Shown: in pieces, positions 37,804-64,000 of the stretch
Layout of the letters: each line of letters begins with the position of its first letter
How positions within the stretch are numbered: position 1 is the first letter of the stretch
From: Botryllus schlosseri
Lineage: Eukaryota
Direction: 5' to 3'
Assembly (NCBI GenBank): GCA_051294905.1
Contig: CM119373.1
Coordinates: 560,001-624,000, forward strand
Length of the DNA: 64,000 nucleotides
Program-made: the position numbers and the translations under genes
The notes under the pieces: generated by a model
Databases searched by the model: none
What the model saw: only the letters and a program-made list of their open reading frames with translations
What the model was told of the DNA's origin: nothing

Positions 37804-38460
37804 ATGAGGGAACTCGGAACAGTGGATTTAATTCCTAGACATGAATCCACGAACTGGGACAATCTACGGAGCATTTATTACTCCTTGGACAGTTGGGATT
37901 TAGGAACCTATGAAACACGCGAAGAAAGGATGAATTTTAAAAGAGCTGTGTGGGATATAATTTCAGACAGAAATGATTGGTGTAAGAGACGGGACGATGG
38001 CCTCTTGACGAGAGTGTCATTGTACGATGAAATATCCCAGAGAACATTGAATATAATGTGCAATATATTGGACGATATTTTGGAACTAAGAAGTAGTGAT
38101 CCATATGATGCAGGGAGGCGCATAATGATTTACGAACTAATTCGAGGCGTGGTTATTAAGGCGACGGATATAAGAGTTTCGAAGAATTGCTACAAAACAC
38201 TCAATAGCTGCAACATGCATGAGGGGGTCGAGGAGTGGGGATGTCAACACGATCTGGGAGTAGTAGGTCATTCCATTGTAGATCACGGACGGACTGTCAG
38301 GATAAGAGAATTGACTTTACGCCCTGCCCCTGTAGAAGGAGCAAGTGTTGATATTGATGCGATGGTGCCTCAAAACATTTTGCACGTTGGCCCACACGAT
38401 TGTATATGTGATGGTGAATGCGACTGTATACAAATAAGAACACCGTATGAATTGAGATGA
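37804..38460 (+). CDS. Intronless orphan ORF, 218 aa, paralog of 39555-40067
   Basis: ATG start; shares RIMIYELIRG...T...V.K..Y.T with the neighbouring ORF (RVMIYELLRG...T...V.K..Y.T). Confidence 0.55.
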   Translation: MRELGTVDLIPRHESTNWDNLRSIYYSLDSWDLGTYETREERMNFKRAVWDIISDRNDWCKRRDDGLLTRVSLYDEISQRTLNIMCNILDDILELRSSDPYDAGRRIMIYELIRGVVIKATDIRVSKNCYKTLNSCNMHEGVEEWGCQHDLGVVGHSIVDHGRTVRIRELTLRPAPVEGASVDIDAMVPQNILHVGPHDCICDGECDCIQIRTPYELR

Positions 38461-39575: not shown

Positions 39576-40067
39576 ATGGATTACATAGAGATCACTAACC
39601 AAATGGTTGGAGAATATGCGCATGAGTTAACTAGAATATATAATGAATTGGATGCCCTGCAAATGGAAAAAGACAACTGTCGTGAACAGATTTTCAAAAA
39701 TACGGCTACGATAATAAAGAGAGCGCTGAAAAACAGACAGCGTCTAAGTTGTCTGGCAATTGCTAAAGATAATAAAAAGGACTTGATGGATGACATCAGA
39801 TATATTCTGTTGGAAATTGAGGGTATGAAGGGGCAGGAACGAGTGATGATATACGAACTCCTGCGTGGATACATATCGTACCATACTGGGTTCGTGGTGC
39901 CAAAAAGTTCGTACAGAACGCGATCAAAAATTATGGAGATTTGGAAAACTAACGAACAAATAAACTGGACTTATGACCCAGAATTTGTGTGGGAAAAAGA
40001 GGAAAGAAGAAAAACGATTTTCTTGGTGATTCCACCGGAGGAAGACAAAGAAAATCAGGGATGTTAA
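39576..40067 (+). CDS. Intronless orphan ORF (~163 aa from ATG), paralog of 37804-38460
   Basis: MDYIEITNQMVGEY...RVMIYELLRG...; a decayed partial duplicate of its 5' end is at ~39389-39457. Confidence 0.55.
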   Translation: MDYIEITNQMVGEYAHELTRIYNELDALQMEKDNCREQIFKNTATIIKRALKNRQRLSCLAIAKDNKKDLMDDIRYILLEIEGMKGQERVMIYELLRGYISYHTGFVVPKSSYRTRSKIMEIWKTNEQINWTYDPEFVWEKEERRKTIFLVIPPEEDKENQGC

Positions 40068-48501: not shown

Positions 48502-48640
48502 AGCATTTCGATTCGATAAAATTTATCAAGTGCAGGAATTACGATAGTTAAAAGACCCCCGTATTTATGATAACGAAGATTGTTTGAAATCATAAGAATT
48601 GCGAAATTTTAAATATAAAAATAGGTTTAAAAAACTGGAT

Positions 48641-49088
48641 ATCCGTACCTTGATGTTAGATCCTGGATAAGACGGACAGATTTTCCAAAATGATAAGGAT
48701 AGTATCCACAATAGATGGATGGAGATCCGTACCTTGATGTTAGATCCTGGATAAGACGGACAAATTTTCCAAAACGATTAGGGCAAATATAACAGATGGA
48801 TAGATATCCGTACCTTGATGTTAGATCCTGGATAAGACGGACAGATTTTCCAAAAGTTTAGGGCTACTAATATAATGTACATCCGTACCTTGATGTTAGA
48901 TCCTGGATAAGACGGACAGATTTTCCAAAACGATTAGGGCTAATATAATTAATGTACATCCGTACCTTGATATTAGATCCTGGATAAGACGGACAGATTT
49001 TCCAAAATGTTAAGGACAATATCCACAATGGATATAGATCGGTACCTCGGTGGTAGACCCTGGTGAAAGACCGACAGATATTCCAAAA
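48641..49088. repeat. Array 1: six copies of a 50-bp hairpin-forming repeat separated by 25-34-bp variable linkers
   Basis: ATCCGTACCTTGATGTTAGATCCTGGATAAGACGGACAGATTTTCCAAAA at 48641, 48725, 48806, 48881 and 48958 (0-1 mismatch), plus a diverged copy at 49038-49088. Confidence 0.95.
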
Positions 49089-50824
49089 CGTTTAGGGCAC
49101 TACCATAGCGATTTACAACGTGACTACGTTGTGAATTGCTATGGAACTACATAAGTTGAATAAAAATGAATATTATAACCGGAAATAATAGGCCTATAAC
49201 ATTAGGAATACCTCAGGCCAGTACTGCTAATATAAAGACCTTAGAAAAGTAACCCATGGTTGAATTTGTCCACACATTCGTTTTTCGAAACTGATGTGCC
49301 GATGATTGAGTATGACATTAGAATAAGACCCGCCTTGTATGCACATTCGTTTCACGAAATGGATGTGTCTGACAAGTGCACTTATGGCACCATGATCAGT
49401 ACGTGCATGCAAATTATTGTATTTTGGCAACGTTACGATAACAAATGACGCAGTATTCTGATATGTGTGTATTTAATGTCCTCCCTGTGCGCATTGAGTG
49501 TATCTACAACTTATATGACAAGAAGAGCGTCTCAAAAACATGCCAATGATTTAATGACCTGCTCTCAATAAGACCATAAGACTGAATGAAGTGATGAAAT
49601 GGCATGAGAGTATCGATATGAACTGGACATTCTGTTGGCATTAATGAACGGCTTGGCGGTACCAACTCTAAAATTACTATTCGACAGTCCCGCAAAACTG
49701 CTCCCCTCGATAGAATCTAGGGCTTAATGAAGTCAAATGAACGAGATGAGAAGAAATCCGGCACCATGAATCACTGCTCAGCAAGGACCAGCGAACCAAA
49801 GGTTGGAACGTGCCAAACAATGCCCGCAAGAAGTCGCGTTGAAGACAGCGGAGAAAAGAGGCGATCAAGACGGCTGCAAAATCAAGAAGAGATACGCAGA
49901 AGGATCGTTTCATCAGCAAGGGAGTTGAAGAAATCGGGTTCGAAATAGATGCACAAGACAAAGTACCCAAGCGTACAGTTGCCAAATACGTCCTTTACAT
50001 ACGATGATGGAGGTCGGAGAGGGTGCGTTTGGCGAACAACGACATGAATCTATCTGCGGCATGATGACGAGACGCGTGAGTCATAACAGGACATTGATAT
50101 TTTCACGTGATGGTTACTTTGATGTATTATTGTATAGTGACGCCATTTTGTTCAAGCGCGGCCTTTACTGTATCTTTGATCAATACCATCAGGTTGCTTT
50201 AAAATGGCGCTAACATTTTATGTCGTAGATATGTGTATGGGTTAGTGAACATTTAATATGTGAATAATTGGTTGTTACTACAGTAATATGATAGCGAATA
50301 CTATGCCTGTAGGCTTTACTTAGGCGTTATACACCGACCACGCCCTATGTTAGTGTCGGGACCCTTCACCCTAGCGGGATAGAAGCTTAGGATTAGAAAT
50401 GGTTAGGGATTTCTTCAGAAAACCCGTAAAAGGGACCCTGGGTATCTAACAGTGTTCGAATAAGCAACACCTTTGTTAAGGGTAGTATCATCAAGTGCAC
50501 TTTAATTGGCATATGGCCATGTTAATCGGGTCAACGATACAAAGTCCTTAATGTTGGAACCTCCCGGAGTTACGCGTTATAACTAGCTACGCACCCTTAG
50601 ACTAAGCTAGGAACCTCTACCTTATTGGAGCATGTGTAGAGTTAAAGATTCGTGGTAAATCAGATCTATTATTTGTGAGACACGGTACATACGAATGAAT
50701 AAAAAGCTTATATACACCGATACAAAGGAACCCAGAGATATAACAGATAGTGATTAAAACATTGGATCGTGCATGACTATTGTGATTGAATGGTGTGTCA
50801 TGTAGCGATATGTCATGAATGAAC

Positions 50825-51053
50825 TTTATGGCAGGAAAGGCCGACACATTCATTAGATGTGTAAACTAACCTCGGAGCTGCTTTACGGCAGGACAGGCCG
50901 TCACATGCATTATATGTGTAAACAAACCTATGAGCTATTTTACGGCAGGAAAGGCCGTCACATTATTTATATGTGTTAACAAACCCTGAAAGATACCACT
51001 TCGGCAGGAAAGGCCGTCGCATAGTTTATATGCGAAAACAAACCTTGGAGTAT
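50825..51053. repeat. Array 2: four ~57-60-bp units, each with two adjacent hairpins
   Basis: Consensus tttACGGCaggaaagGCCGT-CACAT(n7)ATGTG-taaacaaacc; units start at about 50825, 50882, 50939 and 50999. Confidence 0.9.
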
Positions 51054-51180: not shown

Positions 51181-51262
51181 ATGATTGGAGTATTTGGTTG
51201 TATTAAAGGCTTAATTACACGTTATATAAGACTAGTTTAGAACTCTGGACCTAAGGGTCATT
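51181..51262 (+). promoter_or_regulatory. Candidate LTR core promoter (inverted CCAAT, TATA, Inr-like)
   Basis: ATTGG at ~51184, TATATAA at 51223-51229 and TCATT at 51258-51262, about 200 bp upstream of the PBS. Confidence 0.45.
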
Positions 51263-51485: not shown

Positions 51486-51821
51486 ATGTGCGCGAAGACG
51501 ACCCTCGTGAGAATCGTGCTCGGAGTGACGGTAATCACTTCTGTTATATCTCTGCTAATAACGTTGGCGTCGGTCTACGTACACCTCGTGCCAGTATTCT
51601 TTCCCACGACAAACCCTGAAGGTCTCTCTAACGACGTCACTACAACGGCCGAAGCACTTGCTGTCCCACGTAACGGATTTGCTGTGGCAATCGCCAACGG
51701 AACCGAACCAGTTATCTTCGGAAGGTATTCCGTACCTACAACGCAAGGGCGAGTGATCGAAAACAACACAACCACGTCCGTGCGTAATCTGTTTCGAAAC
51801 GGTACTTCCCATAACCAATAA
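51486..51821 (+). CDS. ORF0: 111-aa predicted type II membrane glycoprotein
   Basis: N-terminal hydrophobic stretch IVLGVTVITSVISLLITLASVYV, then a Thr-rich tail with NGT, NNT, NTT and NGT sequons. Confidence 0.65.
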   Translation: MCAKTTLVRIVLGVTVITSVISLLITLASVYVHLVPVFFPTTNPEGLSNDVTTTAEALAVPRNGFAVAIANGTEPVIFGRYSVPTTQGRVIENNTTTSVRNLFRNGTSHNQ

Positions 51822-51874: not shown

Positions 51875-54739
51875 ATGCTAAAATTATTCAAAAAAAGGAA
51901 TAAGTCGTCGAAGGCGGCAGGCGAGCTCGAGCAGGGCATCAAGCTACTGAAAGCAACACAAAAACGCCACGAAGACGTCAGACAACAAGAAAGACAGATG
52001 GCAAAAGACGTGGCTGAACAAACGAAGGTACTAAAAGAAGTCAAATCAACACTGCCCGAGACAATGAAGGGGCTGGAAAAGGCCAAGAAAGAAGTCAGGC
52101 GAGCTCAAGCCGACCTCAAAGCAGTATGCGACGCGACTTCGAAGGTTAGCGGGAAAGTCTCCACTGAAGTCCTCAGTGAGATTCTGAAATCGGAATTTGA
52201 ACTGGGCAAAGCCCATGCCCAAGTGGTTGGAGATAAACCACCACCACCTTCTTCCCTGTCCGTAATGGCTACAACACCTCCCCCGGCGTATGATCCACCC
52301 GTTGGGAAATCGTCCAGGGCAACAGCGCCACTACCCACGTTTACAGTCCAAAAGGGCCTGGATTGCCATACCGTAACTACAGTCTACCCTACGTTGCCCG
52401 GTTCCAAGCCGAGGTCGCTATCAGATTCTCATCCAAAAACGACTCCATGTTTTCCGGTTTGGAATGGAACACGCCCCGAAAGACGAAGGGGGAACCCAGT
52501 CGATACACCCAGTCTATTTCAGCTGAGTAGAACCGGAACAGACACTGGACCAGATTCAGACGAGGACTATGCGCACGCTCGAGAACGGCTCGGAGCATGG
52601 CTCGACGATCAACGAGCAGCCGAAGGAACCCGGACCAGGACACAAGGTGCGGCCAGCACTCCAACAAGGCGCGTTACCTTTCAGGAAGGGAGAACGAACT
52701 ACCGACAAGGCGAAAGCGAAGAGCCCGAAGATTCGGGGGAAGATACTGACGCCCAATTGGACAGACTAGGCAGACAAATAGCGGAGGCACGGGAGGCCAT
52801 TCGGGAAACCACGCGGACGCTTCAGCGGGACTCTGGTCGGCCCAACCCAAGCGAACCCGCAGAGGATATGTCGGACATTGCTGAATACCTCAGATTACCT
52901 CGATACGCATCTACCCCAAGAGAAAGCGAAGGTAGATCGAGACTTCCGCGAGAACAACCGCCAAATGATGCCGTGAACCCGGTGTTGACTACGCCCGAAA
53001 GGTTCCAGTCGGAAAAGGAGATGCTGCAGCTAATGATGGACCCTGGGGATATGCCACTTCTAAAGTGGATGGCTAATACGATGAGACGTATACGACACGG
53101 TGAGGGCGGCACTGATACTGATATCATCCTGGCTAATGCCATGCAGAAGAAGTTGAGAAGTGCGGGTCGCCTCAAACAAGCTAATCAGCTAGGGAATTTC
53201 TTCAACACCAACTCGGGAAATGCAAAATGGGTCTCGGTCATGAAATCATTGTCGCTATCCAACCCGCAAGGCTTGGTAAACAATGAAAAGGTCATCAACG
53301 ATTTCCGAAGGAACTATCAGTGGGAAGACGAACCTCTTCCGCTGTTGAATAGCGCCCTAAAACAACTAGAGATAGATATGGAAGCTGAAATCAAAGAAAA
53401 TCCGGATGGGCTGCGACTCTTCCGCAACCTAAGGCAACGATTACCAGAAGCACTTAGGCTGCTGATGCGGGGATGGGATAGCAGGTCCTGGCAAGAGGTG
53501 GCGGAGGATTTACAGCTGTACTGGAATTCTGAGTTTTTGGATGAACAAGAGGTACGTCCCACCGCTCGAGAGACCAGAAAAACGCGTGAAACAATGTCAC
53601 CCCTACCACCTGTGCACATATATAATGTTCAGCCTACAGGACCCATGATGCACAGTTACCCTACTCACGGGGGTGGAAATGGACGAATAAACACCCCTTC
53701 CCCACCGACTACACCGTCACTTCCAATGGTGCAACCACCCTCACCCCAACAACCTCCGCACATGATCGGGGGGACACCACCCAGACCGTCGGGGAATATG
53801 TCGCCACAGCAGCCCGTCGGCGTCGGGCAAGCGTCGCAGCCACGACGTGGCCCTCCTCGCGGCGCAAAGACCAACCGTTTTCCTACCAATGTAATGAGTG
53901 GAAATAGGTTTGGCAGACAGGGCCCGGCTCCCAGGGCCAAATCTTCCCGAACACAAAATGGGCGCAACGCATCGAATGGACCCAACGTTCCACCAACACG
54001 GAACTCCAGATCTCCTCAAACAAGTCAGGGGCCAAGTACTTCGAACCGGAGACCTCGGATGGTGAATACGCAGGACTCTGGAATTGGCGGGGACAGCCAG
54101 GAAATCACGCCGGCTAGCAGTCAGGAAGCCCTCCGCATCGCGGAGAGCCAAGGTGAGAGGTATAATTTTCTTGGGAACCCCAACATTTTCGCCCCTCTAG
54201 GCTTGTATCTGAACCCCCCTCAGGGGCAGTCCTTATCCGTATGTTATTATTGTAAGGCCCCGGGACACCAATCCCGTAATTGCGTGGCAAAATTCGTGCT
54301 TTGGCTAAATGAGGAGGTGATTGCCAAGGATGATACTTTAGGTTGGGTAGTTCGCAAACGAATACGACCGGTACCTCCGCGCGTAAAGGAGTCCACAAAA
54401 CGCAACTGGGAGCCTTTCCTTGCAAGGAATAACATATTGACGGTCCCGGATCTCGACCGGTACCTTGCCACCCAAGGTTCTCCCTCTCTGACACAGAGAA
54501 CTGCCTTGTGCGAGGCCTATTATGACTCTAGGCCAAAAAACAGAGATAGAACCCACTGGCATGATAGGGACCAATGGGGTCCTCAGGGACCGGCTGTACA
54601 ACCGAACCAGGGCAATAGCCGAGTGGCCTGGACGGAACCGCTATATCGTCGTCCTCCACGTCGCTATGACGCCTCGCACTGGACGGATGAGGAACTTGAA
54701 CAAGGCTTGAGACTCTCAAAAAACGACTGGGGGTGCTGA
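51875..54739 (+). CDS. gag: Gag-like polyprotein (~954 aa from ATG)
   Basis: Basic N-terminus, coiled coil, PPxY late-domain-like PPPAY, helical capsid-like middle, Pro/Arg-rich linker and CCHC knuckle CYYCKAPGHQSRNC. Directly precedes pol. Confidence 0.85.
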   Translation: MLKLFKKRNKSSKAAGELEQGIKLLKATQKRHEDVRQQERQMAKDVAEQTKVLKEVKSTLPETMKGLEKAKKEVRRAQADLKAVCDATSKVSGKVSTEVLSEILKSEFELGKAHAQVVGDKPPPPSSLSVMATTPPPAYDPPVGKSSRATAPLPTFTVQKGLDCHTVTTVYPTLPGSKPRSLSDSHPKTTPCFPVWNGTRPERRRGNPVDTPSLFQLSRTGTDTGPDSDEDYAHARERLGAWLDDQRAAEGTRTRTQGAASTPTRRVTFQEGRTNYRQGESEEPEDSGEDTDAQLDRLGRQIAEAREAIRETTRTLQRDSGRPNPSEPAEDMSDIAEYLRLPRYASTPRESEGRSRLPREQPPNDAVNPVLTTPERFQSEKEMLQLMMDPGDMPLLKWMANTMRRIRHGEGGTDTDIILANAMQKKLRSAGRLKQANQLGNFFNTNSGNAKWVSVMKSLSLSNPQGLVNNEKVINDFRRNYQWEDEPLPLLNSALKQLEIDMEAEIKENPDGLRLFRNLRQRLPEALRLLMRGWDSRSWQEVAEDLQLYWNSEFLDEQEVRPTARETRKTRETMSPLPPVHIYNVQPTGPMMHSYPTHGGGNGRINTPSPPTTPSLPMVQPPSPQQPPHMIGGTPPRPSGNMSPQQPVGVGQASQPRRGPPRGAKTNRFPTNVMSGNRFGRQGPAPRAKSSRTQNGRNASNGPNVPPTRNSRSPQTSQGPSTSNRRPRMVNTQDSGIGGDSQEITPASSQEALRIAESQGERYNFLGNPNIFAPLGLYLNPPQGQSLSVCYYCKAPGHQSRNCVAKFVLWLNEEVIAKDDTLGWVVRKRIRPVPPRVKESTKRNWEPFLARNNILTVPDLDRYLATQGSPSLTQRTALCEAYYDSRPKNRDRTHWHDRDQWGPQGPAVQPNQGNSRVAWTEPLYRRPPRRYDASHWTDEELEQGLRLSKNDWGC

Positions 54740-54761: not shown

Positions 54762-57700
54762 AGACAATTTGTTACCCCAACACGCAAAAACTGTACATAA
54801 TGCTTCTTTACCCCTATTTACATTTCTTGATACACCGGATAACCCACTACAGCCAGACTTTACGGAATTATTCGGCGGTCGGCTCTTGTATTTGGTTGAC
54901 ACCATAACGGGAACTAAATTCTTGGCCGACACGGGAAGCATCCCCAATTTAATAATGAAAAATGATGTAAAAACCATGTATCCCAAGAGCTGGGAGGAAC
55001 GGCAACCCTTAGATATGAAATCACGCGGTATAGGGGGCTCTTCCCACGTTGACTCCTTGGTAATTATTGAATTCGATGGACTACCGGTTCCATTTGCGAC
55101 CGGGAAAGGAGTCCCTCTCAATATTATTGGGTTGAAATGGATTGATCAGGTACAACAATTACCGAACATAGCGACTGAATTTAAAACTCCGTCTAATGCA
55201 AACGAAGAGTTGTCTTTAGTAACACTACATGACGAGATCTCGTGCGATCAACGGGATGGAACCAGAGTCGGAAACAGTCCTTGCAACGCTGCTACCGACG
55301 ATGGGTTGATGGAAGCTGCGAAACAGATAAGCGTCGAGTCGGCGCGCCGGTCATCATCGCCGGCCGTCGCCGCTGGCGCAAGTGTCGAGATGGCAATCGC
55401 CACTGGCGCGGACGACGGGTTGGTAAATACCACTAACGTCGAAAAAAACCTACGGGAAACCCCTAGTGTTGGGACAGGTAGCTCTGCTGGCACTAGGCAA
55501 GAGAGTGTCGGGTCAGGTCGCCCTGCTGGCACTAACCAAAGACGTGTCGAGACAGGAATCCCTGCTGGCACCATTAATGAAGACGTCGAGCGCGGAATCC
55601 CGGCTGACGTAAATAAGGACCTGCACGAGAAAACTGGTCCTGAAAGCTCACGTGGATGCACTTGTTCGAATAACTGTAACAATTCGGCCCAAAGATGCAT
55701 GACGACAGCCACAGTTATGAGTAATTTCCCAAAAGGTTCAAACGAAGCAGCTATTGTCGGTCAACCGGACGCATGTCCAGGCGCATCCGACAAGGAGTCT
55801 GGGGATTTTAAGATGCGCGTCTCCCCAGAAACAGGGCCCCCGGCGGAGAATGAGTCCGTCGGCGTGACGGTAGGTGTGGGCACGCACCGAGCTCAGAGGT
55901 CAGATTGGATAGGTAGGGAATCCCCGCTGACAACGAAGAACCTCGCCCTCTCTCCACCAACACCAAAACCCCGTTTATCACGTGATTCGCATCGGCCGAT
56001 AACTGGTCCTCTTACCACGTACACATTACAACAAGGCACCAGTCCCAGCGTTAAGACGGAACTCGAAAGTCTCTGTGCACAATCGGTAGCACTGGCAAAG
56101 CTTCCATACAAACCTCCTGATCTAACGACCCCGGAAAATACCATCATTGCCGACGAAGTTTGGAAAGCCGTCTATGAGCCTTTCGCAGCTGAACTAGAGG
56201 ACCTGCGTGGCCACTTACGAGCCCCTCAAGCCATGAAGTATAAGTGTGACATAGAACTCAGGGATCCCTCGACTAAGCCTTTTGTTTCTGGACCTTATAA
56301 TCTGAAAGGGGAGGGCCAGGCGAAGGCGTTAAAAGAAGCAGTGGACAACTTCTTGGACCTGGGAATAATTGAGCAAGGATTTGCCGAATGGAAACTGGCC
56401 ATCTTTGTCGTCCCACAAAAAATGAATGAAAGACAGAAGCAGGAGGACGGGTGGAAGCAATCATGGAGAGTCGTACAGAATCTCCAGCCCCTGAACGCTG
56501 CTATAAAGTCAATCGAAGTCCCTCCACCCTTAGTACCAGATGTAAAACAACTCGCCCAGGGAAGAGAAGTGCTCTCCCTGCTGGATTTGAAGAAAGCCTA
56601 TTTCCACATGGATATCACGGAAAGATCCAAGCAATATGTGGGGATAGCAATCAAAGGAATGCACGTAAGATGGCGCAAGATGGTGATGGGATTGAAGACC
56701 GCGGTTGCTCTTTGGAGCGCTAACATGCAAGAATGCGTGGTGAAGCCCATCACGGAAAGGTACCGTCAACACATGAAGCAAAATGGCCGATCGGATGAGG
56801 AGAATGCGACGCCTATGGAGGCCTACATAGACGACATTTTCCTTAGCACAAAAACGGTAGAGGACCATTTGCTTCTCCTACGACTGGTATTTGAACAACT
56901 TGCAAAAATGAAATTGACGCTCAGCATCAATAAATGCTTTATTGGAAAACGGAGAGTAAATCTGCTGGGAGCGACCCTGACGGGGAAAGAGATCGAGGTG
57001 CAGCCCGAGAGAATAAGGGCGCTGCGAGAGCTCTCACCACCCCGAAATATATATGAATTACGGGGATGGATCGGCGCTCTACGCTACATCTCGGAGCACA
57101 TCCCAGAGTTGAGCTTGAAGTTGGCAAAATTTGATGCACTAACGGGAAAAGTCCCAGCGACTCGAGGTAAAATGACACCGGTACTTTGGACCGAAGAATT
57201 AATGCAGGACTACAAGACAGCTCAAGCCGCACTCGACAGTACCAAGGTACTGTATCATCTGGATTCAGGACTTCCCATTTTCGTGGAAACTGATGCATCA
57301 GATGTAGGGTTTGGCTCCGTAATTTTTCAAACGGATGTGGGGGAAAAACCCCCTTTCAAGGAGGTGTATCCGGTCGCTTACTACAGTCAAAAGTGGGTAA
57401 CCCCGACGGCTAAAGCCTATGACCCATGCACCAAAGAGCTTAAAGCCCTGAAGGATTCAGTGGAGAAATGGCAGTCGATGCTGCGCGCCTTACCCTTCAC
57501 TATAATTACTGACAACATGGGAGTTTTTGGACTCCTGAAAAGAATGACAGATGAGGCAAAAAACCCGAGCCCAAAGCCATTGATTCAAAGGTGGCTAAAT
57601 CATCTCTCCGGATTCCAGATAAAAGAGGTAATCCATTTGAGCACGTTCCAAGTGTTTACTTCAGATGGATTGTCCCGATCCTATTGGATGGAAATGGCTG

Positions 57701-58266
57701 CTAGAGATGATGACCCTCATGTCTGGGCCACCCTCCCGGGACACAAAGAATCTCAACAAGAGAAAATACAGCGAACCCTGATGTTCCACTGTCGGCACGA
57801 GTATTGCGCAAACTCTGTCGATGGATACCACCCCTGGGAAGAAGTTCGCGGAATAATCAAAGACAAGCTGCGACAAGACCTCGGGATAACTGAAATCGAG
57901 GATATCATGGCCAATTGCGACAGGGCAGTGATGTCCAGTGAAGGCCTGGCTGCAGCGCACGGGCACACCAAAGGGATGCCACCTCCGTACGAAGAGTACC
58001 TGGGCGATGACATGCTGTATCACATAACGACGGATGAAGGTGCCCGTCAAATCATTGATACCCAACTACACAGAATGAACCGACGGTTCATCCATTTGAG
58101 TAAGATTAACACAACGAAAGCACGTGGGCGTAGAACGGTTCTGAGAATGAGGGCGAGCGACCTCAGAAGGATAGGTCTACGACTCTTACAGTCGCATAAT
58201 CACGAGGTAATACTGTGCGAAGGGCCAATACCGTCAGAGTATATACTGATGGAAAACCTGGCCTAG
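54733..58266 (+). CDS. pol: Pol: aspartic protease, long low-complexity linker, reverse transcriptase, RNase H and a C-terminal Tpt1/KptA-like domain; no integrase
   Basis: FLADTGS (PR); LLDLKKAYFH, MVMGLK and AYIDD (Ty3/Gypsy-like RT); VETDASDVGFG, KELKAL, IITDN and DGLSR (RNase H); CRH...HGHT...LYHIT...MNRRFIHLS...IPSEYI (Tpt1-like). Confidence 0.92.
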   Translation: MLIDPVNQLPDNLLPQHAKTVHNASLPLFTFLDTPDNPLQPDFTELFGGRLLYLVDTITGTKFLADTGSIPNLIMKNDVKTMYPKSWEERQPLDMKSRGIGGSSHVDSLVIIEFDGLPVPFATGKGVPLNIIGLKWIDQVQQLPNIATEFKTPSNANEELSLVTLHDEISCDQRDGTRVGNSPCNAATDDGLMEAAKQISVESARRSSSPAVAAGASVEMAIATGADDGLVNTTNVEKNLRETPSVGTGSSAGTRQESVGSGRPAGTNQRRVETGIPAGTINEDVERGIPADVNKDLHEKTGPESSRGCTCSNNCNNSAQRCMTTATVMSNFPKGSNEAAIVGQPDACPGASDKESGDFKMRVSPETGPPAENESVGVTVGVGTHRAQRSDWIGRESPLTTKNLALSPPTPKPRLSRDSHRPITGPLTTYTLQQGTSPSVKTELESLCAQSVALAKLPYKPPDLTTPENTIIADEVWKAVYEPFAAELEDLRGHLRAPQAMKYKCDIELRDPSTKPFVSGPYNLKGEGQAKALKEAVDNFLDLGIIEQGFAEWKLAIFVVPQKMNERQKQEDGWKQSWRVVQNLQPLNAAIKSIEVPPPLVPDVKQLAQGREVLSLLDLKKAYFHMDITERSKQYVGIAIKGMHVRWRKMVMGLKTAVALWSANMQECVVKPITERYRQHMKQNGRSDEENATPMEAYIDDIFLSTKTVEDHLLLLRLVFEQLAKMKLTLSINKCFIGKRRVNLLGATLTGKEIEVQPERIRALRELSPPRNIYELRGWIGALRYISEHIPELSLKLAKFDALTGKVPATRGKMTPVLWTEELMQDYKTAQAALDSTKVLYHLDSGLPIFVETDASDVGFGSVIFQTDVGEKPPFKEVYPVAYYSQKWVTPTAKAYDPCTKELKALKDSVEKWQSMLRALPFTIITDNMGVFGLLKRMTDEAKNPSPKPLIQRWLNHLSGFQIKEVIHLSTFQVFTSDGLSRSYWMEMAARDDDPHVWATLPGHKESQQEKIQRTLMFHCRHEYCANSVDGYHPWEEVRGIIKDKLRQDLGITEIEDIMANCDRAVMSSEGLAAAHGHTKGMPPPYEEYLGDDMLYHITTDEGARQIIDTQLHRMNRRFIHLSKINTTKARGRRTVLRMRASDLRRIGLRLLQSHNHEVILCEGPIPSEYILMENLA

Positions 58267-58353
58267 GATGCGGGGTGACGCAGCCGTCGAGATTTAACTG
58301 CTGGGAAGTGGTCGATCGTTAAAGGAACTTGTACTTTTTTATTTACTTTTCAG

Positions 58354-59315
58354 ACTCCTTCGTCGAGGATTACAATGTGCTGCGATTGGTGGAAATGGGG
58401 GCCTTACCCCATACACGCGATTGCATCCCTTTTTTAAGAAGCCGGGGTCTACTGAGAAAACAAATGATATGCAGAAAATGCTCAAGATGGATGAAGGAAG
58501 AACGGACTACCGAGAGAATTTCGGACGGATGGAGATGGAGGTGCTCTCCTTGTAAAACCACTGCTACTATCCGCAAGTACTCGTTTTTTTCAAAAAGCAA
58601 ACTTGGGTTACCCCAGCTGCTAGTATTAAGTTATTTTTGGGCCCAAGACTCTCTACAAATTCAAATGGCCCATGAGGCCGAGATCAGCGCACGTACGACG
58701 GTAGAATGGTCTGGACAACTGCGCAAGATATGCTCTGCTTACATACAAAGACGTAAACGGAAATTAGGCGGGGTTGGCCGAACTGTAATCCTGGACGAAA
58801 CTCACTTGGCCAAACGGAAGCGGGCAGCTGGTAGCGGCCAACAAGCAGTGAAGGCTGTCTGGGCTTTCGGTGGCCTGGACCGAGGTACCGGTGACATGTT
58901 TGTGGAGATCACATCTGACCGAACAGCGGACGTTCTGAAAAGACTTATAATTAAGAATGTAGCCAGAGGTTCGACCATTCTGACAGATGGCTATCCATCG
59001 TATAAGGGCATTGAAAGTTGGGGGCAGGGCTATAAACATGGATCAGTTGACCACGCCACCACGTTCAAATCTGCCCAAGGCGTTCATACCAATGATTTGG
59101 AGGCATGTTGGGGCTCGCTGAAATATCATTTACACAGGTCGAGGGGTTTAGCACGCCATTTACTAGCCGATTACGTGGGGGAGTGGCTTTGGAAGAGAAG
59201 ATACCCCCGTAAAAAAAGGTTTGGGGCTCTGTTGAGAACGATATCGCTTGACCCACGGTATTGCAATGACGACCCTAGTGATCAGATCCCTGACGCACAA
59301 GGTGATTCTCATTAA
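58354..59315 (+). CDS. IS1595/ISXO2-family (Merlin-type) DDE transposase, probably expressed from a spliced RNA (first in-frame ATG 58395)
   Basis: Zn ribbon CRKC...WRCSPC, RKYSFFSKSKL, catalytic ILDET / ILTDGYPSY / HTNDLEACW, H..VDH and Y..EWLWK. Preceded by the acceptor tttttttatttacttttcag ending at 58353. Confidence 0.9.
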
Positions 59316-59431: not shown

Positions 59432-59572
59432 ATGCATTGGGGACCGACGCCTATACCGTCTCAATGGACTACGCTATTTATATTCTGCCTGTCGTTATTG
59501 GTTTCAGTTGCACACCTGATTGCTTGTTGTCTGAGGCGGCGGGCTTCGTGCCGAGATCCGGAGATACTGTAG
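59432..59572 (+). CDS. 46-aa single-pass membrane peptide overlapping the env start (not in ORF track)
   Basis: First ATG after the acceptor at 59392: MHWGPTPIPSQWTTLFIFCLSLLVSVAHLIACCLRRRASCRDPEIL*. Confidence 0.4.
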   Translation: MHWGPTPIPSQWTTLFIFCLSLLVSVAHLIACCLRRRASCRDPEIL

Positions 59573-62046
59573 CAAGCAGGGCCCGAACCTTTACTCAGGG
59601 TACACTGGGTGAATTCAACGGCTCACTACCTGACGACTGGGTTCGGCTAAATGATACGCAATGGGAAACCTACGACCTGATGAGTGCTTTCAATAAGACA
59701 GGGAAACGTCATGTGTACAGGCGACCAACACTGTTTCATAGTGAATCTTTTGGTTACGTGGTGGCCGAACGGGTGTCATTGCAGCAAATGGCGTTCCCAC
59801 AAGGGCGATATTGGTCGAATGTACGGGACTTTGAACGGACCTGCTTATGCCAACGAAAACTAGGCCAAATTTCGCCAAACCTAACCTTTACCGTTCTTGA
59901 CCAGGAAACTGTGTTCGTACGCCCAATAGGACATGGGGTCAGGATACGGTGGTTTTGGGACGAGACCTGGGAAACGTCTAGGCAGAAATGGAGGGCTGGG
60001 GCTGAAGTGGACGAGTGGTCCCATGTGAACGATACCTTAATGGCAATGACCAAATTCAAGTTGATCATGTTACGAGCCTTCGCGGGGTTCTCAGCGGTGA
60101 GATCGACTTGTAGGACAGAGCGCATGACAAAAGATACATGGAACTGGACTCAGGTTGATCGATGGAATAAATATAACGCCAGTAGCTCGAGCATTGCGCA
60201 TTGTTGGCCGAGTAACGTGCTTTGGGCCGGAACATATTCAATAACCTACGACTGGAAGACTCGCACGGCAGACAAACGCCTGGTGTCGTCAACGCCAGAT
60301 TCACGCGGCACCTGTGTTTTTTGTGATATCACAGGGATAATTTCTGCTTTAGAACCGAGCCAAGCAGACATAATAATACAAGAAATAGATACCATTCGTG
60401 CGGAATCCGCATGGGAACGTAAGTGGCATCCTATGCAAAACTGCCGAGCTACGTCAGGACTGATCACCCAGGAAAACTATGAACACCTTTGGCAGGTCGT
60501 CCATCACTCACCAACCTTATCCGGTAAGGGCCTACGCAACATCGTGCATCCTCCATCATGTAATTTTTGGCCGACGCAGAACAAGAGTAAGTGGGGGGAC
60601 TTGCCCACCTCGAATTTTCCTCGAAGGATTAGATGGATACAGGCGTCCTTATCGAACTGGAAGGGTCAAGATGACCAAGGGCTTGGTTGGGATAACTTGT
60701 TCGACGGACCTGCCGAAAAACCAGCCGCACCCAACGACATACTGCCTATTTGGCGAAAGCACCCCTCTTTGGTTGCGGATGATCCTAGGTGTCAGGAACG
60801 GATAAGTGGTAGCGACTGTCAAGATCCGGTCGGGGGCCCTCAGTTGAAGGCGGCCTTTTGGGATCAGGTGCACTTCGACCCTGAGCGTAACCGACCCCGT
60901 TTTCCGGGAGGTCCTATAGAAATAAAAGGAGACATCGCACATAATAATAGGAGGATTGGGGGGAAACGTAGACGTAAACGATTCCTCTTCGGCCTACTGG
61001 CACTAATCTTTGCCGTCGTGTCAGTTGTCGCTGTTGTCGCAACTGTATCTTCCCAACTGCATAAAGAAACTGAGGACCTGAGTCATCAAATCAACGACAG
61101 AATGATCCAGGCTACGGAGAGATCAACCGAACTAGGGAAAAAGATAAACGAACTCTCCCAAATCCAAACAGCGCAACAACAAAAGCTGGACCGATTGGTT
61201 GAAAACATGGAGGTAAGAGCATCACTGACGGACAGACGATTGGTGTGGATGCAGAAAATGGTGGAGAAAAACCGACAAATGATATTGCGGCAGGCTACCA
61301 TCACCCTCGCTCAGTTTCAAAGTTTCACAGAGGTGAGCGACGCTGAACTTGCCGTCGACCGCTTGGTCATGAAAGAATTAGCTAATTTGACCGGAAAGTC
61401 CATATTCGATTCGAGTAAGGTCTATCTTACACAGATTCGGAAAGGGACATTGCAGGTGCGGGAGCATGCTCAGCAGTTATCCGCCTATAAAGATACGTAT
61501 GTAAATGAGACAAACGACATCAGTAGTAAACTCCGAGCCAACAGGCTTCGTCTGAACCAGGCTCAAGAAGAAGTGGATCTCAGTATACAGGTATGGAAGG
61601 AAGACCTGAACCGGAGTGTGTTCGTAAATATCTCCGACTGGCGCTACGAGAATGTGTCAGTAGCCCCCTTCGAGTTTGCTGGGGGGGAAGAATTTATGAA
61701 GAACTTTGGCAAAACGATAGAAGAGATGGCGAACGGTGCCGGAAGTCTGATAGAATCGGTCGGAAACGGTGCCGGTAACCTCCTACAAAAGGGACTTGGA
61801 GCAATCGGAGGTCTGTTTGGAAGTGGACTGAGTGGCATTTTTTCGGGCCTCGGATCCATCCTCCTCCCCTTGGGACTTGTACTGGGTGCGGTGATTATCT
61901 TATTCTGTTGTGTCAGGTATCACAGCCTATGCTGTCCCAAGTTAAAATCTAGCGTACAAAGGCGGAACACTAACGCCCAACTTGCAATGTATATAACGTC
62001 GACACCATCTTACACCGTAAAGCCCAGGCCCATAGTGCGACGGTAA
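59464..62046 (+). CDS. env: Envelope fusion glycoprotein (class-I-like)
   Basis: Signal-like N-terminus MDYAIYILPVVIGFSC, many N-glycosylation sequons, furin site KRRRKR (60964-60981), fusion peptide FLFGLLALIFAVVSVVAVV, heptad repeats, Gly-rich pre-TM region, TM ILLPLGLVLGAVIILF and a Cys-Cys tail. Confidence 0.88.
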   Translation: MDYAIYILPVVIGFSCTPDCLLSEAAGFVPRSGDTVASRARTFTQGTLGEFNGSLPDDWVRLNDTQWETYDLMSAFNKTGKRHVYRRPTLFHSESFGYVVAERVSLQQMAFPQGRYWSNVRDFERTCLCQRKLGQISPNLTFTVLDQETVFVRPIGHGVRIRWFWDETWETSRQKWRAGAEVDEWSHVNDTLMAMTKFKLIMLRAFAGFSAVRSTCRTERMTKDTWNWTQVDRWNKYNASSSSIAHCWPSNVLWAGTYSITYDWKTRTADKRLVSSTPDSRGTCVFCDITGIISALEPSQADIIIQEIDTIRAESAWERKWHPMQNCRATSGLITQENYEHLWQVVHHSPTLSGKGLRNIVHPPSCNFWPTQNKSKWGDLPTSNFPRRIRWIQASLSNWKGQDDQGLGWDNLFDGPAEKPAAPNDILPIWRKHPSLVADDPRCQERISGSDCQDPVGGPQLKAAFWDQVHFDPERNRPRFPGGPIEIKGDIAHNNRRIGGKRRRKRFLFGLLALIFAVVSVVAVVATVSSQLHKETEDLSHQINDRMIQATERSTELGKKINELSQIQTAQQQKLDRLVENMEVRASLTDRRLVWMQKMVEKNRQMILRQATITLAQFQSFTEVSDAELAVDRLVMKELANLTGKSIFDSSKVYLTQIRKGTLQVREHAQQLSAYKDTYVNETNDISSKLRANRLRLNQAQEEVDLSIQVWKEDLNRSVFVNISDWRYENVSVAPFEFAGGEEFMKNFGKTIEEMANGAGSLIESVGNGAGNLLQKGLGAIGGLFGSGLSGIFSGLGSILLPLGLVLGAVIILFCCVRYHSLCCPKLKSSVQRRNTNAQLAMYITSTPSYTVKPRPIVRR

Positions 62047-62128
62047 CCAATCTCCGACGAAGCTCTCTTAACCCTCATGCTTAACTAAACACAACTATAT
62101 GAATTACAGATTTTCACGTTAAACTAAT

Positions 62129-64000
62129 ATGCCAATAATTAACTACCTGTACAAATGGAAAGGACTACAAAGATTGCTGCTGTTAATCCCGTGGGCTTGT
62201 TTTGTGAAAACCCAAACTGGCGAAAACCTACTACCCTTATCTGCCATGACCGTGGGGTCCGTCGACGACTTTAATTTTACGGGATGGATACTTTTCGACG
62301 TCCCACCAAAGCCGCAAAGAGTTCCGTTGTCACGGCTTTTTATATTAGGAGGGGACTGGCCTCGAAGGGACATTCGACGTCACTATCAGATACAGGTTGA
62401 CGACTCGGCGTTTGGTCCGTTGAAAGCCGCACCGCAAAGTTTATACAAATTACTGACACCCATATCATCCATAGGATCCCAAAACGCCAGGTATTGGAAT
62501 GAAACCTGGGCGTATGAACGGGAGTGTGTGTGCAGAAGGACTGAGTCGTGGATATCGCCGGATCTGAACCCTGCGGACTACTATACTCAAAAAATAAAGT
62601 ACCGACGTGACGGCAGACTGGGAGTGATACATCTCTGGAGGTACGTAGAAACCCGAGTCTTGCATTCTCTACCCCTCGAGACATTACAACGACTAACCGT
62701 ATATAAGACAATGATCATAAATTTATTGGAACAATATGAAACAGTGGAAGCAAATTGTCGCTATCAGTTCGGGCGTCATATAGGATGGGATATCGGACAG
62801 AATAGATTCAGCCATTGTGTTGCTCACAAAAAACGTCGAAGTAGAGTGATGTGTATAGAGTGCTACTTCATGGGGGAGCAACCGGTTGAGAATTTCTTGC
62901 CCCTAGATTTTGTAATACAGGAAGTCGATCCCGGTATTATTGGGAACCCGCCGGATAAGCGGAGAACCTTTTCTAGCAATCAATGGCCCGACAGAGCTCC
63001 TCTGCCGAAGATAAGCGAGAATCTGGTATGGCTACAAGCAAGGAACGAGACATATTCGGAACATTGGCATGTGATGTTCGACGGACGAAAAACCGATACG
63101 GCATTCCTACGCACGATGGCGAAACCCCAACCTTCAGGCATGGCAATGTATGACTCTTACCCAGTTCTTTTGCATAATAGATCGCGGTGCGGACTAAAGG
63201 AAAATAGACAAGTTTGTTCAACGGCTGTTGGAGATCTCAAAACAGCCTTACTATTCAATAGAGTATTATTCGACCCTTTCGAGGGGCAGGCCGTGTTTGC
63301 GGACCCTCGGCAAGGTGCAATGCAAATTGCTGCCCCTGAAAACCGAACGCGGACGGAAATACTTTTACCAACCCTGGGTAACCAAACTTCCTGCTTGATT
63401 TCAAAAGGGTGGGAAACGTTCATACTATCCCCGTCTCGAGAGACACCCGATGGAAATGGACGGGGGGGTATCAAAACCTGGCTATCCCGTCTTGGGGTAC
63501 AATACGCAGAAGAGACAAAGAAACACTTGTCACAACTGAAGGTTCGAATAAGGGGAGGCGTAGAAACGCAGCGAGAAAGACCCGTCTCGCGGGGACAACT
63601 TGAGGAGTTATCCGTGAGGTATAACCTTACCCTACGACCGACATTAGTAGAACAAGTAAAATTATTAAATACGATACTTCTGGATTATATGGCCACACAA
63701 AAGCTAATTCAGGCAGAAGTGGGGGACGAAAAGTTATTTCAGTCTCGATGGATCTATCGGGGGACGTTTTGTGAAGGTTCCCTGGTCTATACGCCATATG
63801 CCTATAGGAATAATGCGGGGGAGAGATCCACCGCTCGAACGGTGATATTAACCGCAACTGATGACCGTGGAAACCATCACGCAAGGATCACATGGACCCC
63901 CGAAGTTCCGCAAACTACTTCGATGATGGTGGGCAGTACGAACACAGAAGCTTTGGGAAATGGGCGTGGCGTAACACCAAGTGAAAAAAGGAAACCAACA
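62129..64000 (+). CDS. Second env-SU-like glycoprotein, at least 624 aa, 3'-partial (absent from ORF track because no stop in window)
   Basis: Open from ATG 62129 to the window end. Signal-like LQRLLLLIPWACFV. RYWNETWAYERECVCRR aligns with env RYWSNVRDFERTCLCQR, and YPVLLHNRSRCGLKENRQVCSTAVGDLKTALLFNRVLFDP aligns with env HPSLVADDPRCQERISGSDCQDPVGGPQLKAAFWDQVHFDP. Confidence 0.85.
   Translation, partial: MPIINYLYKWKGLQRLLLLIPWACFVKTQTGENLLPLSAMTVGSVDDFNFTGWILFDVPPKPQRVPLSRLFILGGDWPRRDIRRHYQIQVDDSAFGPLKAAPQSLYKLLTPISSIGSQNARYWNETWAYERECVCRRTESWISPDLNPADYYTQKIKYRRDGRLGVIHLWRYVETRVLHSLPLETLQRLTVYKTMIINLLEQYETVEANCRYQFGRHIGWDIGQNRFSHCVAHKKRRSRVMCIECYFMGEQPVENFLPLDFVIQEVDPGIIGNPPDKRRTFSSNQWPDRAPLPKISENLVWLQARNETYSEHWHVMFDGRKTDTAFLRTMAKPQPSGMAMYDSYPVLLHNRSRCGLKENRQVCSTAVGDLKTALLFNRVLFDPFEGQAVFADPRQGAMQIAAPENRTRTEILLPTLGNQTSCLISKGWETFILSPSRETPDGNGRGGIKTWLSRLGVQYAEETKKHLSQLKVRIRGGVETQRERPVSRGQLEELSVRYNLTLRPTLVEQVKLLNTILLDYMATQKLIQAEVGDEKLFQSRWIYRGTFCEGSLVYTPYAYRNNAGERSTARTVILTATDDRGNHHARITWTPEVPQTTSMMVGSTNTEALGNGRGVTPSEKRKPT

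Follow-up and report, generated by a model that had tools for sequence, protein, structure and literature searches.

A probably fusion-dead env paralog adjoins the env gene of a retrovirus-like element in Botryllus schlosseri

Retroviruses and env-bearing retrotransposons are, to our knowledge, described with one env whose product both binds and fuses. Some retroviral env products are non-fusogenic and block receptors, such as Fv4, Refrex-1 and suppressyn, which have an SU-type head but no functional fusion subunit; these are host-domesticated genes of defective proviruses and are close in sequence to the env that they block. Virions are known to retain glycoproteins that no longer fuse, as shown by the F-like protein Ac23 of group I alphabaculoviruses (PMC4864199) and by coronavirus HE (PMC8878323). 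Ac23 is a homolog of class I fusogens that has no furin site and has lost fusion while being kept on the budded virion, and its deletion gives similar titres with slower killing (PMC4864199). Coronavirus HE derives from a class I fusogen, of which the receptor-binding head remains (PMC8878323). Envelope-carrying Ty3/gypsy elements bear ENV proteins of F type or gB type (PMC13524379). Together with the tunicate Tor elements (PMC4402516), they are described as having three ORFs, an integrase and LTRs; their Env is glycosylated, cleaved by furin and equipped with a fusion peptide, and is made from an RNA that is spliced or internally started.

The window analysed here (the whole stretch of 64,000 nucleotides from the B. 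schlosseri contig CM119373.1) contains an element that resembles the Ty3/gypsy env and Tor elements in its gag-pol-env order and in belonging to invertebrates, tunicates included. It differs from them in carrying an IS1595-type transposase, a Tpt1-like domain and two env paralogs, the second of which is called ORF2 (Table 1). Where Ty3/gypsy errantiviruses end pol with an integrase, the present element has an IS1595-type transposase in an ORF of its own after pol, and no integrase family was found in pol with Pfam. The nearest solved relatives of the reverse transcriptase (RT) are entry 8r0s and the Ty3 Gag-Pol and Pr125Pol entries. The Tpt1/KptA-like (RNA 2′-phosphotransferase) domain occupies pol residues 935-1088 (57757-58218) and matches PTS_2-RNA at E 4.3e-5, below the Pfam cut-off. 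Kuafuorterviruses, described with an IADD, VADD or LADD motif in RT, an integrase in pol and a length of 5-6 kb (PMC11673190), were ruled out, given the YIDD motif, the missing integrase and a coding block that alone exceeds 12 kb. The terms ‘two env’ and ‘transposase’ are absent from the main text of PMC13524379, whose supplements list the element structures. The ‘two Env’ of a zebrafish ERV (PMC8672886) refers to two elements and was ruled out as a pair of the present kind. A literature search that was thin on subscription journals found no paper on a fusogenic env paired with a fusion-dead paralog.

Table 1. Positions in the window of the coding sequences of the element and of the parts of ORF2.
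Feature	Position	Strand	Details
Small ORF	51486..51821	+	111 aa; N-terminal hydrophobic segment; no Pfam family
gag-like ORF	51875..54739	+	954 aa; zinc knuckle (zf-CCHC E 5e-4, just under cut-off)
pol	54955..58266	+	RT (RVT_1 1.3e-16), RNase H (RT_RNaseH_2 4.4e-18), C-terminal Tpt1/KptA-like domain
IS1595/ISXO2 (Merlin-type) DDE transposase	58395..59315	+	PF12762 E 7.6e-13; stands where an integrase is expected
env	59464..62046	+	860 aa; SU, RRKR 503-506, fusion peptide 507-525, heptad helices, Gly-rich pre-TM region, TM 799-817, tail
Spacer	62047..62128	+	82 nt; two branch-point-like motifs; weak yAG at 62107-62109, a possible splice acceptor
ORF2 (env paralog)	62129..64000	+	624 codons seen; open at window end, no stop
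Probable signal peptide of ORF2	62129..62218	+	aa 1 to about 30; basic start, short hydrophobic core aa 16-26
SU-homologous head of ORF2	62345..63307	+	aa 74-393 (hhalign); 8 aligned cysteines
Two long predicted helices of ORF2	63461..63712	+	aa 445-482 and 488-528 (AlphaFold2, local pLDDT about 46-57); first amphipathic
Block common to ORF2 and P0005	63707..63796	+	ORF2 aa 527-556, P0005 about aa 490-524 (MAFFT and relaxed hhalign)
S/T-rich stretch of ORF2, probable mucin-like stalk	63821..64000	+	aa 565-624

The original prediction placed a reading frame of at least 624 codons 82 nt downstream of env, and this is what is found: the ATG of ORF2 follows the env stop at that distance, and the frame runs to the end of the window without a stop. 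At the local base composition, 624 open codons would arise by chance with a probability of about 6e-16. The signal peptide is called by hydropathy only (2.59 at aa 16 in an 11-residue window), with a similar peak at aa 9 of P0005, a complete relative described below. Seven N-glycosylation sequons are counted, where several had been announced. The motif R-X-[K/R]-R is absent from residues 1-624, and no 19-residue hydrophobic window exceeds 1.0 across the same residues, so that neither a fusion-peptide-like nor a TM-like segment appears; in env, such windows reach 3.03 at 507 and 2.95 at 799. A basic cluster in the SU part of ORF2 (aa 233-239) holds a minimal R-X-X-R at 236-239, which no hydrophobic peptide follows and which is not seen at the equivalent place in P0005. 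Mucin-like stalks are rich in serine and threonine, and the composition of the last residues seen in ORF2 suggests a probable stalk of this type: serine and threonine make up 27% of residues 565-624 versus 13% of the whole protein, and 33% of P0005 residues 530-615 versus 15%, the like part of env having 12%.

ORF2 is a true paralog of the SU part of env, as the sequence comparisons confirm. BLASTP aligns env 95-246 with ORF2 at E 2e-6 and finds a further block, collinear with the first, at E 0.23. The Smith-Waterman score of env SU against ORF2 is 96, while shuffled sequences give a mean of 39 and a maximum of 60 (0/1000 reach the observed value); the N-block and the C-block of SU taken alone score 89 and 60, again with no shuffle in 1000 as high. 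In the same pairwise test, the env TM subunit has no match in ORF2 (195/1000). Comparison of profiles by hhalign, env-type SU against ORF2-type heads, gives a probability of 99.93% and E 1.2e-35 over env 73-483 and ORF2 74-393, the rows of these profiles having been collected with ORF2 as query. The Cys-anchored blocks first noticed in both proteins are present, and the alignment is significant pairwise as well as between profiles. ORF2 cysteines 133, 135, 210, 230, 242, 245, 354 and 363 align with env cysteines 127, 129, 216, 247, 284, 287, 443 and 452. That the frame is open and eight cysteines are retained at an SU identity of about 22-24% indicates prolonged selection on a head that is folded and disulfide-bonded.

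Relatives are scarce. An unindexed phmmer search with ORF2 gave 6 matches among 1,835,955,588 proteins; the relatives are singletons or pairs from Logan or ENA, and P0005 may not lie behind an env. P0006, P0007 and P0008 are of env type, with a hydrophobic peptide after R-X-[K/R]-R, and their pairwise alignments with env SU range from E 1e-42 to 1e-72; P0009 is a fragment from the N-terminal end. The motif R-X-[K/R]-R is present in P0001, P0003, P0006, P0007 and P0008. In contrast, P0004 (a fragment) and P0005 (complete) run past SU into ORF2-like sequence. P0005 has 722 residues, a signal-like start, 12 sequons and a TM helix at aa 664-682 (window 2.84) followed by a tail; over its full length it has neither R-X-[K/R]-R nor a hydrophobic segment between SU and anchor. 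The SU parts of ORF2 and P0005 are 23% identical, and P0005 scores 134 bits against the env-type P0008 and 84 bits against ORF2. The same plan in P0005, together with its TM helix, speaks for an uncleaved glycoprotein that is anchored in the membrane, and against both a second fusogen and a secreted decoy. We regard the anatomy of ORF2 as likely to be that of a fusion-dead, probably anchored env paralog. The original claim of a duplicated SU-type glycoprotein without furin site or fusion peptide stands in its anatomical part, and the anchor of P0005 argues against a purely secreted decoy. Of the other searches, pattern scans of viral and metagenome contigs gave 4, 89, 206 and 602 pattern matches with no relative confirmed, word-index protein searches returned 0 matches for ORF2, 1 for env and 0 for alignment A2, and ORF2 matched nothing in Pfam (E up to 1), PHROGs or PDB sequences.

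The sequence that follows the head had been taken as unrelated to env. The furin site and fusion peptide of env are indeed missing there, while ‘unrelated’ is possibly too strong a word. The AlphaFold2 model of ORF2, poor overall, has a hairpin at aa 541-560 besides the two long helices, the first of which is a possible remnant of the TM-subunit heptads; the heptad moment of ORF2 peaks at 1.06 at aa 456, and P0005 has a heptad signal at a like place. The block common to ORF2 and P0005 lines up with the best-conserved stretch of the env TM subunit (env 638-669). This match has an hhalign E of 0.15, and its score of 21.7 is equalled or exceeded by 9/300 shuffles, but two control segments from SU score 21.0 and 23.0. 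Among eight env-TM windows, the best-conserved one found a collinear place in both proteins, not above chance (155/400 and 53/400; joint 68/400), and a window with a joint 1/400 matched non-collinear places. It is somewhat more probable than the contrary that ORF2 residues 445-556 or so are a degenerate TM-subunit remnant, ORF2 being then a copy of a whole env and not of SU alone; with controls that were not passed, this reading is suggestive only.

The duplication appears to be old. In SU trees, ORF2 and P0005 join at 89/86 and 80/83, both on long branches; P0003, P0004 and P0010 (near-copy or fragment) were left out, and P0009 entered only the tree with the 89/86 join. Constraining ORF2 and the neighbouring env as sisters is rejected (p-AU 0.0021), in a test that shares any long-branch pull, and no DNA similarity between the two genes is detected (best E 0.17), which together rule out a recent tandem copy of the neighbouring env. 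A common origin of ORF2 and P0005 is neither shown nor rejected by a join supported at 80/83 between long branches. The simplest reading of these sequences would be one old duplication, before the split of env P0001 from P0007, then faster change in the fusion-dead copy. The read-derived substitutions listed, at least 8 (5 in env, 3 in ORF2), comprise 4 synonymous and 4 non-synonymous changes and are too few to judge selection.

Structural comparison provides leads rather than assignments. With 6-7 sequences, AlphaFold2 reaches a mean pLDDT of 38.4 for env and 40.7 for ORF2; fold searches with these low-confidence models return generic helical hairpins and coiled coils only (Z up to 8.7 and 7.6) and exclude no family, and Foldseek finds no match at E 0.001 or better for either model. 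In the ESM Atlas, the best value for the ORF2 head (0.80) lies within the range of shuffled proteins. No Pfam family matched env SU; features of the env TM part lie nearest to HA2, spike S2 and F (0.82-0.84), which is no more than a lead. With the env model (pLDDT 38), HE chains come out among the high ranks, at E 5e-3 in BFVD and 0.1 or worse in the PDB, again a lead only. For the ORF2 model they do not rank high. HE and HEF are marked by a lectin domain set into a sialate O-acetylesterase domain, and ORF2 has no Pfam or PDB-sequence match to them. As for baculovirus F, no Pfam family links it to ORF2 at E up to 1, and the models are too poor for a fold comparison.

ORF2 would work like Ac23 and coronavirus HE, a likeness that need not mean membership of either family. 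ORF2 resembles Ac23 in the loss of the furin site, yet Ac23 coexists with GP64, an unrelated fusogen that replaced F (PMC4864199), whereas ORF2 lies in a reverse-transcribing element directly behind its own paralog, which appears intact. The HE of coronaviruses and toroviruses, unlike a member of the ORF2/env pair, was acquired from another virus, is unrelated to the adjoining spike and has an esterase (PMC8878323). The difference from the domesticated receptor blockers is of another kind: ORF2 is a second gene inside the element and deeply diverged from its partner env.

The role of ORF2 is much less supported than its anatomy, and its function is what we infer from the latter. The env gene would have been duplicated long ago, one copy keeping the SU-type head and losing the furin site and fusion peptide. 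The product of this copy would be an uncleaved type I membrane glycoprotein with a signal peptide, an SU-like head, a helical neck, an S/T-rich stalk, and an anchor and tail beyond the window, the anchor being postulated from P0005. Made from a spliced message, it would stand beside env on the particle or on the surface of the producer cell, where the head, raised on its stalk, would bind a receptor or glycan for attachment or tethering and leave fusion to env. We give an even chance to this reading, in which ORF2 is anchored, stays uncleaved and serves for attachment through a stalked SU-type head beside a fusogenic env. The broader proposal is more tentative and falls somewhat short of even: an ancient duplication of a single env in transposase-integrating, retrovirus-like elements of invertebrates may have led to two-glycoprotein entry, with a furin-activated class I fusogen and a stalked attachment protein.

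Several other roles have been considered for this protein. The anatomy of ORF2 fits a receptor blocker equally well, in which the anchored head occupies or down-regulates the env receptor in the element-carrying cell and so excludes superinfection, as non-fusogenic retroviral env products are known to do by blocking receptors. At 22-24% identity and on a long branch, the receptor specificity of env is unlikely to have been kept, however; interference could come from env itself, and a mucin-like stalk fits outward display, all of which makes this role unlikely. It is less probable still that ORF2 regulates env, its helical neck co-assembling with env oligomers and restraining, shielding or chaperoning the fusogen, which would spare the host cell from fusion or killing. 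In its favour are the long amphipathic helices after SU in ORF2 and P0005 and the common block opposite the best-conserved env TM stretch; against it, this block lacks significance (hhalign E 0.15, and SU controls of 21-23 against 21.7).

A shed or secreted protein, serving as an immune decoy or as a glycan screen that protects from host lectins and complement-like defences, is a slightly poorer candidate than a regulator. The 7 sequons, the S/T-rich part and the lack of an anchor in the 624 residues seen would suit it, and the basic cluster at 233-239 could be cut; this cluster sits among conserved cysteines, however, and the complete P0005 ends in a TM helix and tail. Least probable by our estimate is a second complete fusogen, with a cleavage site and fusion module beyond the window or a trigger other than furin. 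ORF2 is cut off by the window end and helices do follow its SU part, but in the env-type P0001, P0006, P0007 and P0008 little sequence separates the end of SU from the site and the hydrophobic peptide, whereas the roughly 230 residues of ORF2 seen beyond SU contain neither, and complete P0005 has no hydrophobic segment between SU and anchor.

Such two-glycoprotein entry, if true, would amount to a paramyxovirus-like division of labour drawn from two paralogs within a reverse-transcribing element. Fusion-dead Ac23 (PMC4864199) and HE (PMC8878323) sit beside an unrelated fusogen, whereas ORF2 and env are paralogs in one such element. A stably kept, deeply diverged pair, of which one member is fusogenic and the other not, would show how gene duplication can assign attachment and fusion to separate proteins, and would make this step testable with two neighbouring genes. 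Two maintained surface glycoproteins would also argue for a real extracellular stage of a transposase-bearing element, spread as infectious particles.

Contigs of two public runs, X1 and X11, cover all bins of ORF2 at env-like depth (in X1, 21-47 over ORF2 and 28-103 over env), and their pieces are 90-99% alike, as expected of alleles or several copies. One X1 contig (62025-62532) spans the spacer and the start of ORF2 without gaps. No indel in ORF2 is found among the 12 listed from the X1 and X11 contigs, and none of the read-derived pieces listed extends past 64000. Another X1 contig, of low depth (2.96), omits 210 bases of the neck and stalk region of ORF2 (63682-63891), possibly as a deleted copy or through an assembly error.

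A spliced message for each gene is plausible from the sequence. The acceptors before the transposase and env have 16/20 and 15/20 pyrimidines and are among the three most pyrimidine-rich of the 296 yAG sites in the element; the candidate acceptor of ORF2 has 8/20 pyrimidines before it and lies 20 nt upstream of the ATG, with no ATG between. A precedent for a spliced env message exists in the tunicate Tor3a (PMC4402516). Two single-cell RNA runs, of which about 3-4% was sampled with low power, give a depth of 0-0.06 over ORF2 and 0-0.2 over env and no splice joint; gag and most of pol are equally empty in this sample, whose libraries may read transcript ends only. Late in pol, a GTAAG donor (phase 1, codon 1049) is compatible with the strong acceptor of the transposase (phase 1; region 58100-58353), and the transposase frame is open for 24 codons upstream of its ATG. 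Splicing of pol to the transposase could place the latter at the usual site of the integrase in Pol, with loss of part of the Tpt1-like domain. A strongly hydrophobic ORF of 46 codons (59432-59572) overlaps the start of env in another frame and has the first ATG after the env acceptor; it may encode a small membrane peptide, or be a sign that the env start of this copy is not the original one.

At 51183-51208, 278 nt upstream of the first ORF, the ‘Chordata 1’ spliced-leader exon consensus (PMC3795323) is repeated almost exactly, with one A added, and is followed by GC instead of GT; this copy points to a tunicate host. Run X24 contains 104 reads in which a template-switch-like adapter immediately precedes 51183; past about 51207-51216 these reads diverge, a pattern expected of trans-spliced mRNAs of the host. 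The segment may have arisen by reverse transcription from the 5′ end of a trans-spliced RNA, and would then be evidence of an RNA stage, or it may mimic the leader. Repeats occur at several places in the window. Upstream of the coding block are tandem arrays of about 5.8 copies of an 81-bp unit (48638-49102) and of 4 copies of a 57-bp unit (50823-51050), the latter drawing many partly matching RNA reads, and the N-terminal region of pol has a 39-bp tandem repeat (55465-55571). Contig depth peaks sharply at 55461-56362, a region that would be common to many more copies or to another repeat. Finally, two ORFs of no known family, at 37804-38460 (218 aa) and 39576-40067 (163 aa), have a block of 27 residues in common that is 48% identical (E 1e-5), and are possibly accessory paralogs of the same element.
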